64,000 nucleotides of DNA from Blasia pusilla (Eukaryota), in contig CM114271.1 in NCBI GenBank assembly GCA_050084515.1, positions 43,462,001 through 43,526,000 on the forward strand, given 5' to 3'. The notes beneath the pieces are model-generated. The model worked only from the letters and a program-made list of their open reading frames with translations, did no database searches and had not been told where the DNA came from. This document shows, one piece after another, positions 14,201 to 64,000 of this stretch (position 1 is the first letter of the stretch; each line of letters opens with the position of its first letter). Both the position numbers and the translations under genes were made by a program.

Positions 14201-15504
14201 AAATTCTAGCCTTCTCTCAGATAGATGTGCACAGAGTAGGCCGCTCATGGAACTTCGAACAACGAACGCCATAGCTTGTACGGACATGCAACAGCTGTCG
14301 CACGACAACTGATGACGTTTCCTTTCGAGGCGGATCTTCCTGCCACACGGATGGCATGAAACTCGACATCTGCCGATAATTTTTTTCAGGTTTTGGCTCA
14401 GATAGATTTGCGTTGCGGGCCACGTAGGTCGGAAACACTTGGCAGGCTGCTCATGGAAATCCGTACAGCTATATGCAGCCCATCTCTGAACTGTGGGCAT
14501 GAGACTGCAGTTACGGCACTGGGACAGCAATCAGTAATGACAATTTGAAGCAGATCCTTCCTTCCACCGATAGCATGTCGACTTCGCTTCTGCCTGAGGC
14601 TCAGACAGATCCATAGACATAGGCGACCTGGCAGGCTGCTTGTGGAACCCCTAACAGCCCGAACGCTTTTCTTTACATGAAGATGCTGGCGCCATTAATA
14701 ACGATCTCAGGCGGATCCGGATTTCGCAGGCCTTCCTGCCCCATGGATGCCATGTGGACCTTTTGAGCCGCACGCGTGCTTTTCTCCTTGCAAGTCCCAG
14801 ACTCCCAGCTCCGAGGTCTTGGTCTCCGGTATCGGAGCGTATTGTGTTGTACGGGAGACCTTCTGGCCCAACTGCTTTGGATTTGTCCGCATGCGGCGGA
14901 ATGATAATGGTTTTCCGGGGAGAGATGGTGAAGGTGTGACAGATTGCGAATCGTTGGGAGGAAAATGCAGTCCAAGAGCTATATTCGCAGGACCGGCTGT
15001 TAGGGGTCAGTGGTGCGAGAGATGGGAGATTGCGTATCAGCGGTACAGTGCCGTGTACTATTGCCTAGCACATATCTTGGACTATTTGTGGAAGGCCATG
15101 CGGTCATGATCCTTCAGAGAGTTGGTCGGCTACTTCACCATGCGGGTGGAGGACGGGAGATATCCGAAGAATGAATCAGCATTAGGGACGGCGTCAGGTT
15201 CTCATGGCTAGATGACTTCCACACTGCTTCAACTTCAATGAGAACAGGAGGAAGTGTTGCAGACGCCTGTCTCAAATCTCGGAAAGAGACGATTAATAGC
15301 GCTTCTGCTGATCATTCACGGTCACTGCCCATGGTCTCCATCTTTTGGGGTTTTAGGAGTTTCAGACGTTTTCGTGCGTGTTTTGAGCAGTGCAAGGATA
15401 CGCAGATCATTGCGGATAATGAGGAGCCCCGGGAACTCTAGGGTTATGTGATGTGATCAGAGGCGAAGGGATGAGCAAATTTTGAGAGACCGGGCATCCT
15501 CCGC

Positions 15505-16668
15505 ATGGCTCCTCCTCGTAGTTCTCCTCCTCAGGATACTCGACCTACACCCAAAACACAGGACCGGAACGATGCCGCAATTCCCCCTTATTTCAAAGCC
15601 ATATCTGGCTCGTTGGGAGGGGTTGTCGAGGCCTGCTGTCTGCAACCAATCGACGTGATCAAAACGCGGCTTCAGCTGGATCACGCGAGACAGTACAGAG
15701 GAATTGCGCACTGCGGATCGGCAATCATCAAAACGGAAGGAGTTCGAGCTTTATGGAAGGGACTTACACCATTTGCAACTCACCTAACCCTGAAATACAC
15801 CCTCCGTATGGGATCAAACGCTGTATTGCAAACAGCTCTCACTGATAAGGACACTGGAATCCTGAGCAATGGAGGTCGAATGGCAGCTGGATTTGGTGCC
15901 GGCGTCTTGGAAGCTGTTGTGGTCGTTACACCTTTTGAGGTACGTGAGATTTGTGCTATTCCACCTCATTCTTGACGACGGAATGCAGGAAGAGAGACTT
16001 TGCGAATTTAGGCACATTAATATGGATCTCGGAAGCATCTCCCATATCTTTCCATGCTCGGACTTCACAAATAAATTTGGACGGTGGGTGTTGATTCTCC
16101 ACTGAATTCTCAGGTGGTGAAGATTCGATTGCAGCAGCAGAAGGGGCTGTCTCGAGATCTGCTCCGCTACAAGGGCCCAGTCCATTGCGCGACCTCGATT
16201 GTACGTGAGGAAGGTCTGCTTGGTTTGTGGGCTGGGGCAGCCCCAACGGTGCTCCGCAATGGAACCAATCAGGCGCTAATGTTCACAGCCAAGAACTTTT
16301 TCGATAGATTATTGTGGAAAAAGAACGAGGGGGATGGCCGGACACTGCAACCGTGGCAATCCATGACGTCTGGACTACTCGCAGGGGCAGCGGGACCCAT
16401 AGCCACAGGTCCATTTGACGTAGTCAAGACAAGGTTGATGGCACAAACGCGCTTCGCAACAGCGGGTGTTCAAGAACACACTCGATACACAGGAATGGTG
16501 AATTGCATACAGCGCGTATATATCGAGGAGGGCCCGAGGGCTCTGTGGAAAGGGTTGCTACCCCGGTTGATGCGCATTCCTCCTGGCCAAGCCATCATGT
16601 GGGCGGTGGCTGATCATGTCACCGGACTGTATGAACGAAAATTCATACGTCCAGCAGGTTCACGATGA
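15505..16668 (+). CDS. SFC1: Mitochondrial succinate-fumarate carrier (SLC25 family); exons 15505-15939 and 16114-16668, 329 aa
   Basis: Three carrier signatures: PIDVIKTRLQ, PFEVVKIRLQ (across the splice) and PFDVVKTRLM. Plant SFC1-type motifs EACCLQP, KGLTPFATHLTLKYTLRMGSN and RNGTNQA. Phase-0 intron GTACGT (15940)...TTCTCAG (16113). Confidence 0.93.
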
Positions 16669-25899: not shown

Positions 25900-27610
25900 C
25901 CAAAGTATTACTTGATACCCTACGATTCCTCGCCCGCTTGTGGCTACTACTCGCCATCCGGGCTATTTCTCCACATCTAGGAAGAAAGCTTGTTCAACCT
26001 GACTAGGGAATACAAAAGGTTTAGACCATTCATGCTGCATTTGCCTGAAGATTGCTAGTAAGAATCCATCACTATCACGCTGCATTGTAGGTCTAGCCCC
26101 ACGCCAATCTGATCGCACCCAAGTCCCTTTCATGAGACAAAATGTGACAAATCATATGTGACAAAATGATCGTCACTTTGATCTACCACACGGAAGTGGT
26201 TTCCATGGGCTTGCATTCTCTTGTAAGCTAAGACGGACATTCAATCGAATCCATTTTGTGAATGATGGAAATCCCCCTACACCACCCCCAATATGTGCAC
26301 TTTTCTCCATATCATATTTCATGTAGAGGTCATGCCATTATTAGCCAATAGGTATCTGGTGAGCGACAACATAAAAAAAAAGATTAGGAAGTCGGATAAA
26401 TGCAACATCACGTAGGCTTGAGTCATTCAACCCTTTACTTACATCCACCATGGTTACATTACACTAGTGTTTTGTAACACATATTCATTAGCCATCTGCC
26501 AAATATGCCTTGGAAATTGCAATGGGGAACCTCTGCCTTGAAGAACTTCACCTACTGCTCCTTCATCTTCCTTGGCTTGCCATATCCTGGCCTTCACATG
26601 TTCAAACCCCACCATATACTCTGTCAAATATCCCAAGGTCTCGTGCGAAATGTAACCAATTGCCATGCTGGCCTCATGCCTATATCTTTTCAGGATGTGG
26701 TCTTTCAAGACTTTCATAAAACGCTCTAGTGGGAACATCCACCTCGTATAAACATGCCCAAACTATCCAAGCTCTTCCACAACATGGATAATGAGATGAG
26801 TCATCATATCAAAGAAGGCGGGAGGAAAATGGATCTCCAAATCGCACAATAATTATGCCACACCATCTTTAAGCTTGGGAAAGCTTGTTGGATCAGAGAC
26901 CTTCACACATATACGACTAAACATCTTGCACAATTGCATGATTGCATTACGAACCGGCTTCGGCATCAATCCCCTTAAGCATACAGGCAGAATGTGTTGC
27001 ATAAGCACATGATAATTGTGTGTCTTCATACTACCAAGTTTCTTGTTTTTTACATGCTTTTTGACGGCACCTGCATAGCCGGTCGGAACTCTCAGAGATT
27101 GAAGCCTCAGATGAAACGTTTTCCTCATTGTGTCTATGCAAACATAAGGTGTCGGTATTTCAATACCACCTTGGGTCTATTCTCATCATCCTTCAACCAC
27201 AATTGAGACCGTATTCTCTTCTCCTGGAGATCCAATGGTACTGCAGCTATGTCCTTCTCCCTAGAAAGGAACCTCAATAGTGACTCCCATACATTTTTCT
27301 CAATATGCATTACGTCTAGATTGTGTTTGCTAGGGTCGAACTCCTGTTACATCACATATGAAAACCATGAGTACATATGGATGATAAACAAGTAGCCTCA
27401 ATTCTTGAAAGCATCTAGTGTGGATGCTTACTTTCATAGATGTTACGTACCAGCGGATGTATGACATAGATTACCCGCCAGTAGTTCAACTCCACATCAA
27501 GTATGCTTGTCGTTTCACACCATATCTCTGTCCCGGATCCCGTTGAGCATTTGGAGCTTCTTTATTGTGGCGTTCAGATCTATTATCTAAACCCTCATCC
27601 TTCAGTCAGA
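25900..27610 (-). pseudogene. CACTA/En-Spm transposase C-terminal part (DUF4218- and DUF4216-like)
   Basis: KHNLDVMHIEKNV (near 27290-27330), SLRVPTGYA..GSMKTHNYHVLMQHILP, FPPAFFDMMTHLI, WMFPLERFMKVLK, and PFVFPSQVEQAFF near 25980-26020. Confidence 0.85.
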
Positions 27611-28867
27611 TTCTATTTTGTCTCCAAGCAAAAGTATGCTAGAGAAATCTTGAAGCCATTCGTGATGATCGAGTGTAAGGCAATGGTCTCGCCAATGGAG
27701 GTAGAGTTGAAACTCTTGATGGAGGTTGTTTCACCATTGGTAGATGAAAAGTTGTATAGAAAGCTTGTAGGCAGTTTGATATTTTTGTGTAACACTAGAC
27801 GAGCCATTAGCTTTGCTGTGGGAGTGTTGAGTAGGTTCTCAACTAAGCCTCATGAAAACCATTGGAAGGCAGGGATGCATGTGTTGAAGTTCATCAAAGG
27901 CACTATAGAGTACGGAATCACGTATGGAGCAGGGACAAAAATGATAGCTATTTGTGACTCGGATTGGGCAGGAGATTCAAATTCTAGGAGATCAATTTCA
28001 GGTTATTGCTTCTTGGTAGGATCATGTGTACTATCATGGGTTAGCAAGAAGCAACCTAAAGTGGCTCTTTCTTCTACAGAGGCAGAGTACAAGGCGGCTT
28101 GTTATGCTTCTTTTGAAGCAGTATGGTTGAGATGGATATTGGAGGACATAGGAGAAGCACCAGAAAGTGCTATTGTAATGTGGTGTGACAATCAGAGTTG
28201 CATTGCCATAGCATATAATCCTATGTTTCATGCTTGTACAAAGCACATAGAGATCCAATATCATTTTGTTCGTGAATTGATCGAGAGAGAGGTTTTGAAG
28301 TTAGTCTATTGTCCAACAGAGGATAACCGTGCAAACATCTTCACGAAAGCTTTGAGCAGAGATCAGCTTCACCGACATCTGAAGGGTCTCGGCATAGATC
28401 CAAGACAGTAGTCCACATGAGAGTGGATATTGAGGGGGGGTGTTGGATTCTCAACATCCACTTCTCTGAGCACCATAAATCTGATCGGCCCCCTTGTATG
28501 AGGAGAATCCTAGATTGATGGTTCCGACTTAGACGTTGAAGGAGTCATAGTAATATGACGTAGGTGGTTTATGGAGTAGCATTACTAGGATTATCAAAAC
28601 CTAATGCGTCGCGGGGGTCTTGGGGTGCATCCCCTAGCCAAATTTTTCTAAGAATAGAAACAAAGAAAAATAGGTTAAAAAACCATAGTTTCCCGAGTAG
28701 TGAAATAGTCATAAACCGCAGCGATAGTGCATTCTCGTATGTCAAGTTATCTCCATATTCAGGTTCCATCAAAGTGATTCTGTGAGCGTACGGACGGACT
28801 AGGCCACTTTGTATCTCTAAGTTTTGTAAAGATTTCAGTGATCTTGTAACTTTCTATTTTCTCATCA
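27611..28867 (+). mobile_element. Ty1/copia 3' fragment: RT C-terminus and RNase H (to 28411), PPT, 3' LTR from 28441
   Basis: SKQKYAREIL, YRKLVGSLIFL, CDSDWAGD, SKKQPKVALSSTEAEY, KHIEIQYHFVRE, ANIFTKAL. PPT TTGAGGGGGGG (28430-28440) is followed by TGTTGG. The LTR end is approximate. Confidence 0.9.
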
Positions 28868-37503: not shown

Positions 37504-37607
37504 TGTCGTGCGAATCCACATTGTCATACAACAAACATCGCTGACATACCATACTCACATACATACATAACATAGACGAGAGCATACACAAATACAAGTG
37601 TACCACA
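37504..37607 (-). repeat. Terminal repeat B, copy 2 (about 104 bp)
   Basis: tgtcgtgcgaatccaca...gtgtaccaca; direct repeat of 37979-38082. Confidence 0.9.
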
Positions 37608-40910: not shown

Positions 40911-41139
40911 TGGCTGCTATGCAACCCCCTCACAAGATGGTACACCCTTAGCTACACCATCATCTGAGCGGATAACTCCTCCATCAAAATGAGCAACCAA
41001 CTCCACATGCCCAGCAAAAAATACTACTCTCCTTGCCCCAGCCGATGCCTCTACTGTCCCGGTAGCCATTAAGCTCATCACAAGGGGTGGAAGATCCACA
41101 CACATAGTCCGAAGCCGACGTTGCTTGGCAATACCAAGA

Positions 41140-42085
41140 CTCAAAATCCAGGTCCAACAATTCAGGTCCATGGCCTGACCCAACACATGAAGTCGTGAAG
41201 CCTCAGAAATGGAAGCAACCGCTGTCACACTAGTAGCAAATCCCATCGCACGCTCTCTCTCATCAGCGTTAGGCTCCACCAACTGTCGCACATGAGAATC
41301 CCATACAAGCCCTAGACCACCTTCCCTGTAGGCATGTGACGAGGGAAAACTCACAAATGTGGGTAGTGCCATCCTAGGCTGCCCCACACGGTTCACCACT
41401 GCCATGGGTGACCGATCAATAACCCTCACCACCTGAGAAAGTCGCCCAATTCCAAGTTACTATCCACTGTAAGGCAAGGATCCCGCTGCACTGCATCATA
41501 TGCTCAACGTAGAACCTCCCTAGGCAACAAGTTTGTCCACCACAAGCGTGAACGATGTGCACGCGAGCCAACTCGCACTGAATCCAACAACACCGCTTGT
41601 CCAATCCAAGACCGCACCTCATAAACACTCGTCATCATCCGGGTCCGAGTGTCACCCAACAATGGAACATTCTCCAGAATGTAAGCTGGAGCACGTGCTT
41701 GATGAACGTGAAGATGTCGTAACACACACAACATCTCCCAAAACAATCGAGACCTAGGGTTGTGTAATCTCTCACCACGACCAGCACATGTATGACCCTG
41801 ACATGGCCATCCAGCAATCACCAAATCCACAGGACCAACCCTCTCAAGCTCCTGCCCTCCCAACAATGCAATGTGTGACGACAAAGCACGTTGGTACTCA
41901 CAAATAGCTGATGGCGGCAACAACTCAGGATATCTCCATATCAACTGACCAATATGTGGGGATGAGACTCTCTGGGCCGTCTCATCTTGCTCCACATACA
42001 CGTATCTCTGCACAAGAATACAGGCCTGCAACACTGCAGCCAAACCAATGCTAATCCCACCAAAGAGATCTAACACACAAATGCC
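41140..42085 (-). pseudogene. C5-cytosine DNA methyltransferase domain embedded in the retrotransposon pol
   Basis: Motifs in canonical order: I VLDLFGGI, II VEQD, IV DLVIAGWPCQG (catalytic Cys codon 41801-41803), V RSRLFWE, VI ILENV, VIII AHRSRLWWTNL, IX ERERAMGF, X RLHVLGQAM. One stop (41504-41506) and one frameshift near 41450. Confidence 0.92.
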
Positions 42086-45000
42086 CTCCGGCGGATACTG
42101 CCATACAATGGGTGTAGTATCCAAAGGGGATAACCCAACTAGACGAGAAGTAGGAGTCCGCCGTGGAGCCTCCTCTTCCTCGTGAGGTATAACAGCCTCA
42201 CACCAAGCCTCCTGCTGTAGTGCACCGCCTGAACTCCAAAGTGGCAAATCCAACGATGAGAATACCATTGCTGCAAAACTAGGAACCTCCTCTACCTCCT
42301 CATGCACAGGAGAATCCATAGCAGAAAGGTTACCCTCCAAAAAGTCTCATGGCCAAGTGACTACTCCACTAAAACTAGCCACAGATGCTAACACTGTTGG
42401 GGAAGACTCTCCGGGTCGAGCCCCATAAATAAATCTTACAAGAACGTGGCATATACGTCCATCCCCGGACTACCAACCAGGTCTATAAGAGGATGTCTGA
42501 GTCCAGTAGTCCATCTGAAAACCCATCAGGTATAATACTGCTCCTCCAACTAGTACATCATACAACTCGGCTGATGTGACCACTGCAGGTACTCCCAACT
42601 TGGAGCTATCAGTCACATGATCTGGTCTGAAGTGTATAGAAAACTTCTCCCGTGTTATGAAATGAGACCTATCATTGGCTCCTCCAAGTGATGTCTGAAT
42701 CAAGAATGGGCAAGGCTCAAGCTCTGACCTCCGAACATGCCAATACATGCCGCCTTTCCCAACATCAAAGGTTGGGCACCATCGTCTAACAAGACTCTAT
42801 CTGGTCTATACACCTATCGTGTAGGACCCACCAATAAGAATATCCCATTCCGGTTGTCCATAATACATACACCAGGTGTAAGCCTCTTACGATCAATGGT
42901 TGGCCGGGTTGGTAATGCATCCATCTTCGCCGTTGCTGCCTCCCAAGTAGCACTGGTACTCAATGCTACACCTGACATAGAGGGTTGCTCCACCGCAACA
43001 CCCTCATCCACCTTAGCACGTGTAGTAGTAACACTCCCACATTCACACAACATGGCTGCTAGCTGAAATACAGGAGCTAAGTCAACTCCTAAGGCCATCA
43101 ACTCAGTGGTTGAAAACAATGGGGATCCCAACATTGAAGTTGCCATCCGCAATATTGCACTGGATGCTGCATCTGTGTCTACTACATGTGATGTAAATGC
43201 CTCAGTCCCCACTGTAGGCTCAATAGGCTGCGTCGGAACCATGGATGGAGTCCTAAGCACCTCAGACAACAAGAATGACTAGGGGAGCCTAGCCTGCCTC
43301 CAAGCCTCACCCCTCTGTGGGTCCAACTCCACAATAGAACCACGTGGCTCTCACGCTCGAGTGGCTCCTCTCGTAATTACAGCTGATGCCTCAACCTGTG
43401 TTGTACTCGCCATATAAGAGAGATCATCCCCTCCATAATAGGTGGAAGCCCCTGCTCCCGAACGTGCTCTATGCTGGATACCAACCGTAGTAGCCAACCC
43501 AACTGCTCAATCTTGGCAGCCATAGCTAACTCTGTCGTAGTGGTAGGGGCAGCCATCGTAGGCTCTCCAACCGCTGGTCCACCTCTACCACCCCTACCAC
43601 TTCAACCAACTCGGCCTCTCGGAGCTACTCTACCATGGCCACGGCTTGATCTCAACTTTGGATGAAGATCAAAACAACGCTCTCGAGGATGACCTGGTCT
43701 CCCACAATGATCACACTGAGTTGGGACTGACTAAGGTCCATCCTCCAAAGTCCGTCTCCCATCCTCTTGGGAACAAAACCTCATGACATGATCACCTCCA
43801 CATGTCCAACATGACTGTCCTTGCTGTGGGGCAGCAAATGAAGGCAATGGTCTATGTGCAAGTGTCCTTTTAGCACCTAACTGAGGTCGTGTGTACCCCC
43901 CACGACTCCCACTACTACTACCACCACCACTACTACTACGAGATTTTGAGATGGATTGTTGAACAGGAGAAGTAGAAGCTGTATCCCTAATGAATGTTGA
44001 TGTCACCACCCTCTCCTCCACCATGTTAAGCTCAATCTTCTCAGATAGAGCAAACACATGGGCCAATGTGGGTGAATCATCACTCATAAGAGTAGCATCA
44101 TGTACCCTACGGCGCAACTCTCTTTCCAAGATCCCATACCTTTCTGCCTGAGCCTCAGTCACACCCTAGGTAACTGAAATCAAGCGTCGCATACGAGTGT
44201 ATGCCTCACTAAGACTCTCACCAATCTTTTGCTCAAATTCCTGAAAACTCCTTAACTTCTTTGTCTTCACTCCCTAATAGTTCGTCTTCAACCTCTTGAA
44301 ACACTGTGCAACTGGGCTGAACGATGGTGGGGCACTAGTACTTCCACTAGTACCCCCATTGGTACCTCCATGGGTACCCCCACTGGTACCCCCTCTCCGG
44401 CTCGTACTCGCATAACTCAACGTGGGGCTGGCTGACACAATAAGAGCACTACTACCAATACCACCATGGGTGATAGATACATAGCCTGGAGACCAATATT
44501 ATCTCCACGCCTCAATCTCAGTAACATGGTCCCTCCTAAACTCATGGTAATCATCCATGGGTGGTCCCTCCAAGTGCTAAAACAACCCCTTCCAAGCCAA
44601 GAAGGGGGTAAACAACGTGGCGTTCCGCAACATTTGCATATCACACCATGTATCAAACTCCTGAATAAAGTCCTCCAACTCAATGGTGCCCACTGCACCC
44701 GAGTATTGTTGTGGGCTCTTCATGGCCCCATACATCCTGTCCATGTCCCAAATCAATGGAGCTGCAACACTCGATAACAATGTAAAAGACTTGGTGTTTG
44801 GAACACCCTCGTCCTCCTCTTCATCAACCGTCGGAAGTGAAAAAAGGTAGCCGATACCTCAATCCACTCCGTGTAAAACCACTAGTGTCTGCACCACGGT
44901 CCCCAACCAAACCACTAGACATCTCTGTGATGACCAACGCCGATGCCGCACCACCACCAAATCACCATCACTAAGTAACCAAGTGACGTCCATGTCGTTG

Positions 45001-62349: not shown

Positions 62350-64000
62350 TTACATATAATTGACAATGATAAAATATGACAAATAAATGCAAACCTTTTG
62401 CAAGGTTTGGTCTTGAGATTTATTAACAGTCATAAAAAAAATTGGGTGAATATGGAATTGAAACCTACGTAAATCAAATGGCAAACGAGAATCCGATGCA
62501 ATCAATGGGATACACAAAATAAAAAGCCGATCTCCAATGTTTTTCCCTATGATGATTTCAACATCTATGCAATGTTGCATAAATCCATGAATCACCAATC
62601 TCGTTTCGTTTGCTTGTCCTTGTGACCCATTCATGTTTCGTAAGAGCATGATTGGTGGATCAATCTTCAAATTTAAACGATGCGGAGGTAGTCTAGAAGG
62701 CAAACATGTGTACAAAAATTCCGTTGGATAGATATGACTCATCCCCTCATTTGGAATATAGTCGTTGTTGAGGTAAATATGCTCTTATACACACTATATG
62801 ATAAATTCGTGAGAAAAAAATATAATAAAACAATCCTAAACCCTAAACCCTAAAAGAAAAGATCCATGTAGAAGATGTATCGAGGTTAAAAGATTACTTG
62901 TCCAGAAAACCGAGACATAACATCTGCATTTATGTCATCAACAACTCTATTTCTTGGAGTTAGAATAGTTGTATCTCTCAAGAAAATGTCGTGGAATTGG
63001 CTAGGAGAATTGCCATAGATCAGATCAATAAGATCAGATATCTTATTACTATCAATGAGAATTTCCGATGGTAATTGTACGAAATATTCTCCCAAATAAG
63101 GGTGCAAAGGTACACGACCGTCTCCCACTTCCAATAACCAATCAACAAAACCTTGTTGTTCAACACACAAATGACCTTCCAACCTTTGAACTCCCATGTT
63201 TGTTGTCAATTTCATGACCTTTACATTAGACCAAATAGATGATCTCTTTATGGTAACTTGGATGATTTGTGGTTGATCCCCATGACGAACAAGTGGCAAC
63301 ACTTGACGAAAGTCACTACTAAATATCATAAGTTTTCAGCCAAATAGTAATTGTTTTAGATCATCATAAACAACTTCCATAATATCTTGTAAAGTGCAAT
63401 TCAGAGCCTCGAATGCATGACGATGAATTATAGGTGCTTAATCCCATATAATGAGCATTGCCTCGCGGATTAAGCGTGCTCCATCACTATCGATTGATAA
63501 ACTATAAATGACAAAGGAAAATAGATTAGAAGTTGTAATAATTGTAATTGGACTAATGAAACTTTGTGTATCAATAGAATTGCATGTAAAGTGGTTAATG
63601 ATATTTACTTGCAAGTAGAGCTCTCATGAAGATTGATGGGGATCTTGAAACGCAAATGTGCAGTTCGTCCTCTGTCTAACAATAAAGCACCCATTCCAAA
63701 TGATGCTATGGCTAATGCTATACCTCTTGCACTCCTTACACTTGCAAGGAGCAGATTATATAGAAATTTCTTTCCCGTTCCACTTGGACCGTCAATGAAA
63801 AATACTTTTGAAGATGGTGGAGCATTTAAACATATTTGATCAAGTTCATCATGTATAGCACCCAAAATAACACATTTTACTTTTTTCAGACACGCTTCTC
63901 TCAATTGCACTTCCTCAAATAATTCTTCAGTATCATATAATAGTTCTTATTCCTCCAAATATGCAAGTGAATGAAGGCTTTGGAAATTAACTTGGGCATG
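62350..64000 (-). mobile_element. Helitron Rep/Hel remnant (PIF1-like helicase), running off the window end
   Basis: FFIDGPSGTGK, GRTAHLRFKIPI, DFRQVLP, ILTPRN, LPPHRLNLK..PIMLLRN, MTVNKSQDQTL; disrupted by stops and probable introns. Confidence 0.88.

Follow-up and report, generated by a model that had tools for sequence, protein, structure and literature searches.

A decayed Ty3/gypsy-type retrotransposon with a DNMT3-like methyltransferase in its pol region, probably a land-plant relative of the streptophyte Gypsy-DNMT3 elements

Retrotransposons which encode the class of enzyme that their hosts use for silencing them present a paradox, and the function of these enzymes is unsolved. Two such systems have been described by de Mendoza et al. 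(2018, PMC5890265). According to the accessible text of that paper, the charophyte alga Klebsormidium nitens carries a Gypsy-Dnmt3 element in which repeats of the type A-coding-B-A-B are combined with Gypsy domains, and the repeats of the dinoflagellate SymbioDIRS elements are given as 'A-coding region-B-A-B'. Activity was demonstrated there for the dinoflagellate enzymes only: the SymbioDIRS DNMT3s methylated CG sites de novo in yeast, whereas the streptophyte enzyme, the DNMT of the K. nitens Gypsy element, gave no methylation in yeast, a result which the authors call inconclusive. The same text proposes the cDNA of the element or its fresh insertion as the target, and raises RNA methylation for the DNMTs borne by long interspersed nuclear elements (LINEs). 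DNMT3s embedded in retrotransposons 'in streptophytes' are mentioned in the accessible part of PMC12344493, and two later papers, as far as their text is accessible, cite Gypsy-DNMT3 as a streptophyte feature. Here we analyze a 64,000-nucleotide (nt) stretch of contig CM114271.1 (assembly GCA_050084515.1, Blasia pusilla; forward strand, positions 43,462,001 to 43,526,000), called the window below and numbered from its first letter. A sequence-only reading of the window had pointed to a retrotransposon carrying its own C5-cytosine methyltransferase inside pol, and had noted that such elements are known from dinoflagellates and from charophyte algae such as Klebsormidium. We read window positions 46908-37504 as an old, multiply broken insertion of a high-copy liverwort Ty3/gypsy family, which carries a DNMT3-type domain within a single gag-pol frame and forms part of the land-plant branch of the streptophyte Gypsy-DNMT3 elements. 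We give this reading a probability of roughly 0.85.

Going by the published description, KnitGypsy-Dnmt3 and the window element have in common an intron-less DNMT3-type domain in the Gypsy Pol frame, DIRS-like A-coding-B-A-B repeats together with Gypsy domains, and purifying selection on the DNMT, which for the window element is seen on the deep branch only. They differ in their hosts: KnitGypsy-Dnmt3 resides in a charophyte alga, the window element in a liverwort, and the family of the latter is also found in Marchantia, Calypogeia and Sphagnum. SymbioDIRS-Dnmt3 from Symbiodinium, as described in the accessible text of the same paper, shares with the window element the DNMT3-type domain in Pol and the A-coding-B-A-B repeats. 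It is, however, a DIRS element with a tyrosine recombinase, whereas the window element has a DDE integrase (H2C2 and rve domains), TG...CA termini and 4-bp target duplications. We read the window element as a probable land-plant branch of Gypsy-DNMT3.

The element is a single insertion of a 9.4-kb Ty3/gypsy-type retrotransposon on the minus strand of the window, with a 4-bp duplication on both flanks. Pfam and tblastn place on this strand, in coding order, gag, protease, C5-cytosine methyltransferase, reverse transcriptase (RT), RNase H, integrase and a PHD finger. The Pfam scan covered ten open reading frames (ORFs) of the window, four of which gave matches (DNMT, RVT_1 with RT_RNaseH, Integrase_H2C2 and PHD). 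The methyltransferase is a collinear DNMT3-type domain of about 320 amino acids (aa), located at 42091-41133, with matches to PF00145 and DNMT3A and an identity of 65-73% to the Marchantia copies; the sequence-only reading had put it at 42085-41140. A 280-aa ORF (42346-41507, minus strand) contains motif I (LFGG), motif IV (AGWPCQG), motif VI (ILENV) and motif VIII (GSRAHRSRLWWTNL), and a second ORF in another frame (41456-40920, minus strand) continues with motif IX (ERERAMGF) and motif X (LGQAMD). Thus, translation and alignment give motifs I, IV (PCQ), VI (ENV), VIII, IX and X in the order that had been claimed. The position between protease and RT also holds, with the active-site region of the protease at about 42786-42778 (near 42780 in the first reading) and the start of the RT region at 40916 (formerly 40910). 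An intron had not been evident, and the alignment to the relatives has no intron-like gap in the DNMT. The match of the first ORF (41504-42346 with its stop) to PF00145, a check which had been proposed, is above the curated cut-off (29 bits against 22, E = 9.4e-7). When the window ORF was searched with phmmer against the PDB, DNMT3A was matched with E = 3e-7 across motifs I-VIII, DRM2 with 0.1 and HhaI with 0.2. The DNMT has exactly two internal lesions and hence no continuous coding frame: an in-frame TGA between motifs VIII and IX (41506-41504), where relatives mostly have an arginine codon, and a missing base at 41446-41445, recognized against the relatives from the change of frame between ORFs 41507-42346 and 40920-41456. 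The earlier count of only two lesions holds for the DNMT itself and understates the state of the whole copy, which is far more damaged elsewhere.

A fragment of a host DNMT3 gene might have been captured by one element, or be interrupted by one, so that the DNMT would lie outside the family as a one-off or nested artefact. For this speaks that the window holds a single full copy, and that a second fragment (35840-32606, minus strand) joins gag to RT and RNase H without protease or DNMT. The wider sampling speaks against it. A protein search restricted to proteins of 491-2000 aa (5848 candidates, E <= 1e-3) returned 42 related proteins, the best of which are 62-66% identical over the whole ORF. 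Organism names are attached to 21 of these, namely Marchantia polymorpha (16), Calypogeia fissa (2), Sphagnum (2) and Closterium (1), and the order protease, DNMT, RT recurs in the Marchantia, Calypogeia, Sphagnum and Closterium relatives. All six motifs are intact in four of the 21 named proteins, namely the Marchantia proteins P0002, P0014 and P0016 and the Calypogeia protein P0006. Several of the Marchantia, Calypogeia and Sphagnum proteins among P0001-P0022 are filed as DNA (cytosine-5)-methyltransferase or as hypothetical protein and are pol fragments of this family. Relatives are also encoded by 206 of 239 metagenome stretches, from which 80 loci (L001-L080) were fetched. These loci are 73-80% identical to the window element at the DNA level over about 7-8.5 kb, and the named proteins closest to them are from Sphagnum (up to 82% over 160 aa). 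Where a metagenome copy spans both protease and RT, the DNMT lies between them in 40 of 41 cases, a count biased towards DNMT holders because the loci were partly retrieved with DNMT sequence (two of six search peptides). P0166 is a single product of 2324 aa with CCHC, protease, DNMT, RT, RNase H, H2C2 and rve domains. Further, the DNMT and RT-RNase H trees concur on the lineage, and the closest cellular enzyme reaches 81 bits as against more than 260 bits for family members, without near-identity to any host gene.

The fragment at 35840-32606 consists of gag (matching P0002 aa 9-489) and, within about 84 nt, RT and RNase H (matching P0005 aa 696-1171, 60% identical). It has no integrase and no A or B repeats, and it keeps the part of RNase H that is missing from the main copy. 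Since the protease is absent along with the DNMT, the fragment appears to have arisen by deletion from a member of this lineage. A one-off capture is thus very improbable, and the DNMT is a family trait, as the sequence-only reading had supposed.

The family is also abundant. In two presumed-DNA runs under one organism label, 165,831 of 10.5 million and 4,515 of 1.96 million contigs fall on the element at a likeness of at least 85%, with all 30 bins covered; in these two runs the element family is highly repeated. The DNMT is also covered, at a likeness of about 90-95%, by contigs of two further runs; the RNA label of these runs is a guess, from which we draw nothing about expression. Joints in run contigs near 37573/38055 have 22-27 nt on one side and lie inside the B repeats, and were taken as misplacement of repeats.

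To which class of methyltransferase does the domain belong? A profile built from ten family DNMT domains was searched for this purpose against solved structures (PDB) only. The best matches are DNMT3A (5e-22), DNMT3C (3e-20) and DNMT3B (7e-20); weaker ones are tobacco DRM (8.5e-13), DRM2 (1e-10, partial), HaeIII (9e-8), HhaI (5e-7) and DNMT2 (1.5e-6), and no DNMT1 is among the PDB matches listed. DNMT3A aligns collinearly over profile positions 3-247. DRM2 aligns only over positions 2-127, to its residues 227-346, and such a partial alignment to its C-terminal part is expected because DRM2 is rearranged. All ten aligned relatives match PF00145. The window enzyme is therefore DNMT3-like and not permuted, in agreement with the earlier view that it resembles the DNMT3/DRM type without the permutation of DRM. 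With the cellular DNMT3A/3B/3C and the plant DRMs it shares the class of catalytic domain, and with DNMT3 also the collinear motif order. It differs from them in being embedded in a retroelement polyprotein, in having no adjacent PWWP or ADD domain and, from DRM, in not being permuted. Pfam finds no PWWP or ADD domain in the window ORFs, P0166, P0002 or P0005, and the sole reader module is the PHD finger at the integrase end.

At a threshold of E <= 1e-3 the family profile matches 16,256 representatives; 3,010 of them pass E <= 1e-10, and 496 representative clusters pass E <= 1e-30. The top 150, which all score E <= 5.3e-73, are without exception of retroelement type. When the domains of 149 of these were mapped by blastp, 88 fitted the order RT, RNase H, DNMT, integrase, PHD, 11 fitted protease, DNMT, RT and 50 had the DNMT only; Pfam bears out both layouts on example proteins. 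In a DNMT tree of 151 rows, 15 of which were labelled provisionally as protease-DNMT-RT, a single branch separates the two layouts (SH-aLRT support 97). The corresponding branch has a support of 100/99 in a 62-row DNMT tree, made of 36 rows from the side of the window element and a sample of 26 out of 89 rows with the second layout. An RT-RNase H tree of 62 rows, for which the rows with the second layout were thinned from 107 to 54, likewise splits off the seven protease-DNMT-RT rows at a branch supported with 97. From these matching splits we conclude that the layouts represent two lineages of elements, in each of which DNMT and RT have stayed together. In the 62-row DNMT tree the nearest neighbours of the window copy are four Marchantia proteins (99/93); Calypogeia and one further protein join them at the next node (99/95).

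The sister lineage (for example P0039 and P0173) has a homologous DNMT of about 320 aa (317-323 aa), and its RT-RNase H and integrase-PHD parts are homologous to those of the window element as well; P0039 is 34% identical over integrase and PHD. The two lineages differ in the place of the DNMT, which is between RNase H and integrase in the sister lineage and between protease and RT in the lineage of the window element. Members of the sister lineage (P0039, P0173, P0328-P0409), from metagenomes and transcriptomes, include many uninterrupted products of about 2000 aa, and their JGI labels are often 'transposase InsO' or 'site-specific DNA-cytosine methylase'. It is possible, at somewhat less than even odds, that the DNMT3-carrying gypsy elements are an old and diverse group with two sister layouts, of which the protease-DNMT-RT branch was carried into land plants and reached high copy number in liverworts and mosses. 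When the DNMT-less gypsy element of the window was used as outgroup for RT, it came out as a long branch inside the sister lineage, and we make no claim on the monophyly of the DNMT-bearing elements with respect to ordinary gypsy elements.

Selection on the coding regions was estimated as the ratio of nonsynonymous to synonymous substitution rates (dN/dS; Nei-Gojobori) from codon alignments guided by P0005, with the same columns in shifted frames as controls. Between the window and the metagenome copies the median dN/dS of the DNMT is 0.263 (n = 80, range 0.19-0.41, dS about 0.76; controls 0.68 and 1.24). The values for protease (0.288, n = 65; controls 0.70 and 1.01) and RT (0.214, n = 55; controls 1.14 and 1.07) are similar. 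Thus, the constraint on the DNMT along the deep branch has about the same strength as that on protease and RT, and these data show the methyltransferase to be a stable, selected component of the lineage. A dN/dS comparison across copies had been recommended by the sequence-only reading, and with 0.26 on the deep branch the ratio is not near 1.

The ends of the element are well defined. The target-site duplication AGTG stands on the 5′ side at 46912-46909 and is identical to the 4 nt directly after the 3′ end of the element (37503-37500). Repeat A1, the 5′ terminal direct repeat, lies at 46908-46541, begins with TG, ends with CA and shares 92.2% identity with A2 across an alignment of 372 nt. 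Gag (44858-43600) follows with two CCHC knuckles and is split over several frames (tblastn to P0002 aa 1-405, 60.5% identity). The alignment places the aspartic protease region at 43278-42470; it reads DDG at the active site, where relatives have DSG, and contains a stop and a frame break. Downstream of the DNMT are the remnant of RT and RNase H (40916-39596; PF00078, E = 8.4e-14, and alignment to P0005), the frame-shifted integrase with H2C2 zinc domain and core (39551-38495; PF17921, E = 3.6e-16, and tblastn to P0039 and P0021), a TAG (38494-38492) and the PHD finger fused to the integrase C-terminus (38491-38261; PF00628, E = 6e-10). A run of G resembling a polypurine tract (38093-38088), which is also present in all five metagenome loci printed, stands just 5′ of repeat B1 (38083-37979, 105 nt). 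B1 is followed by A2 (37976-37610) and by B2 (37608-37504, 105 nt, 94% identical to B1), which forms the 3′ end of the element and ends with CA. All these features are read on the minus strand.

The layout is therefore A1-coding-B1-A2-B2 with split direct repeats, and not one of two plain identical long terminal repeats. A self-comparison limited to metagenome loci of at least 14 kb gave the same layout in five of 22 loci (L007, L022, L030, L050 and L067), which amount to four independent insertions as L007 and L030 are the same one. Target duplications in these loci are CATA (L007/L030), AATC (L022) and one with three of four bases matching (L067). At the junction of B1 and A2, in the window as in all five loci, the 3′ terminal sequence of the element runs into its 5′ terminal sequence at a spacing of 0-4 nt. 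Such repeats follow a logic like that of DIRS and PAT elements, found here in an element whose integrase is of the DDE type, whose ends are TG...CA and whose insertion duplicates 4 bp of the target, and we cannot offer a replication model which explains this combination. The assignment to Ty3/gypsy follows from the pol order protease, RT, RNase H, integrase, from the H2C2 domain and DDE integrase, from the TG...CA termini and from the short target duplication. A scan of the window with Rfam gave zero matches.

The sequence-only reading had tied its interpretation to a host among bryophytes or other land plants. A mitochondrial succinate-fumarate carrier gene lies on the plus strand at 15475-16665, and its second exon (16075-16665) is closest to liverwort orthologues: the identity is 86% to Marchantia polymorpha, 80% and 77% to two species of Riccia, 79% to Calypogeia fissa, 75% to Sphagnum and at most 76% to the best seed-plant proteins listed. 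As the exon is closest to liverworts and the grouping in the DNMT tree supports this, we take the host to be a liverwort other than M. polymorpha.

Several points weigh against our reading of the insertion as part of a land-plant Gypsy-DNMT3 branch. The likeness to KnitGypsy-Dnmt3 was drawn from the description in the accessible text of the 2018 paper, and no match named K. nitens occurs among the related proteins, the cluster members or the results of the sister-lineage search. The placement with DNMT3 comes from scores against solved structures, and the trees were built from retroelement-type sequences. The call of a liverwort host from sequence stands on a single exon. The 80 dN/dS pairs share one branch and are therefore one observation repeated rather than 80 independent tests. 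Among the metagenome copies themselves the dN/dS of the DNMT is 0.60, not below the controls of 0.49 and 0.58 (3215 pairs, dS > 0.05), which is expected from neutral decay after insertion. Only eight of the 80 metagenome loci have any ORF of at least 400 aa, and the DNMT region is free of stops in only three of 72 copies, with a median of four stops per region; nearly all fetched copies are dead. Finally, no primer-binding site was recognized in the element, and the window has no tRNA genes.

What might the methyltransferase do in an intact member of the family? We suggest the following steps for active copies. Translation of Gag-Pol would yield the DNMT as one of its domains and bring it into the particle, where it may be cut out by the protease or stay attached to RT. 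It could then methylate the new cDNA of the element or its fresh insertion, and the PHD finger of the integrase could steer integration by reading histone H3 tails or the state of the chromatin. That the enzyme serves to methylate the element's own cDNA or new insertions is a tentative proposal, to which we would give odds somewhat below even. The window copy is capable of none of these steps.

The domain could instead be conserved without methylating the DNA of the element: it might act on RNA, it might serve the particle structurally or by binding nucleic acid, or its catalysis might have been lost. The lack of DNA methylation in yeast by the K. nitens Gypsy DNMT, inconclusive as it is for its authors, and the RNA methylation considered for the LINE-borne DNMTs (both in the accessible text of PMC5890265) would suit this explanation, as does the family member P0038, in which Y replaces the catalytic C. 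On the other side, PC(Q), ENV and RxR are kept in nine of the ten aligned diverse members. Even among the decayed metagenome copies the motifs are the majority state (PCQ in 60 of 81, ENV in 70 of 79), and the DNMT3-like enzymes of SymbioDIRS do methylate CG de novo in yeast according to the same source. We thus regard a domain that does not methylate the DNA of the element as quite unlikely. Other changes in the metagenome copies are PC* in 10, GQA kept in 39 of 70 and replaced by G* in 14, and RAHR kept in only 18 of 78, with mostly C or H for R otherwise. The loci L001-L080 are full of changes of the C-to-T type at conserved motifs (R to C or H, Q to stop, A to V).

The substrate could also be host DNA, at the integration site or at defence loci, with integrase and PHD finger directing the DNMT there and not to the cDNA of the element. 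The PHD finger follows the integrase in 32 of the 36 loci which hold the integrase end, and it is present in the sister lineage too. Its closest solved counterparts are the PHD fingers of KMT2C/D, CHD4, DPF2/3, ATXR5, KDM5 and PHF21A, most of which read the unmodified H3 tail. This likeness to chromatin proteins suggests an action directed at chromatin. In the lineage of the window element, however, RT and RNase H separate the DNMT from integrase and PHD, and the present data do not discriminate between the substrate DNAs. We consider host DNA as the target rather unlikely, and prefer the self-methylation proposed above. The chromoviruses among the Ty3/gypsy elements have a chromodomain at the C-terminus of their integrase. 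The window element likewise has a chromatin-reader module at this place, but here the reader is a PHD finger. We found nothing in the searchable literature on a combination of PHD finger and integrase.

The copy in the window was called dead from its sequence, and the damage is indeed extensive. RT has lost 29 aa including the catalytic YIDD motif and RNase H about 107 aa, so that most of the latter is gone. Five stops are spread along protease, DNMT and RNase H, the integrase is frame-shifted, and stops or frameshifts occur in gag, protease, DNMT and integrase. At the site of the TAG between integrase and PHD (38494-38492), 20 of the 24 relatives printed have a tryptophan codon; thus, integrase and PHD are in one frame in the family. 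The ratio of observed to expected CpG is 0.55 in the element and that of TpG/CpA 1.33, as compared with 0.78 and 1.17 in host genes; the corresponding values of the DNMT-less gypsy element are 0.86 and 1.11. The low CpG and raised TpG/CpA of the DNMT-bearing element fit a loss of methylated cytosines through deamination as the copy decayed. At the codon of the DNMT stop, 77 relatives have CGG (40), TGG (16), CGA (10), TGA (3), CAT (3), CAA (2) and CAG, CAC and CCG (one each). With this spectrum of CGG, CGA, TGG and TGA an origin by CpG deamination, put forward earlier as a change from CGA to TGA, is plausible. The divergence of about 8% between A1 and A2 suggests that the insertion is millions of years old, if an ordinary plant substitution rate is assumed.

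As to novelty, Gypsy-DNMT3 of streptophytes is already known from K. nitens, and the Marchantia proteins are public as hypothetical proteins. Our searches found no paper on the presence of such elements in land plants, on their abundance in liverworts and mosses, on the two layouts or on the PHD finger of the integrase. In particular, no paper describing DNMT-bearing retrotransposons in bryophytes came up in the searchable literature, with supplements and subscription papers beyond reach, and the DNMT trees in supplements, for example that of PMC12344493, could already show these sequences. The accessible text of PMC5890265 has zero occurrences of Marchantia, Sphagnum and PHD.

In bryophytes the Gypsy-DNMT3 family is present in large numbers and has long been conserved, and as relatives are present in Marchantia polymorpha, a tractable model plant, the purpose of the DNMT becomes testable there. 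Should some of the Marchantia copies be active, retrotransposon DNMT3s could add to de novo methylation in bryophytes. Moreover, annotated bryophyte 'DNMT' genes can be fragments of transposon pol genes, and gene counts of the methylation machinery may be inflated.

The remainder of the window contains a further host gene on the minus strand (19814-17183), the C-terminus of which matches SAE2/CtIP (PF08573, E = 1.5e-8). A gypsy element that is much better preserved and has no DNMT lies at 53651-49503 (minus strand), with long ORFs containing CCHC, protease, RT, RNase H and integrase and a Tf2-type SH3 domain. An RT-RNase H fragment is found at 1678-1244 (minus strand). Fragments of a PIF1-type helicase (62353-63335, minus strand; PF05970 and PF21530) are of a kind typical of Helitron remnants. 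A 308-aa ORF at 27485-28408 (plus strand) resembles by eye the end of a copia-type pol and has zero Pfam matches. The segment 30001-32000 has a G+C content of 0.289, as compared with 0.44 for the entire window.

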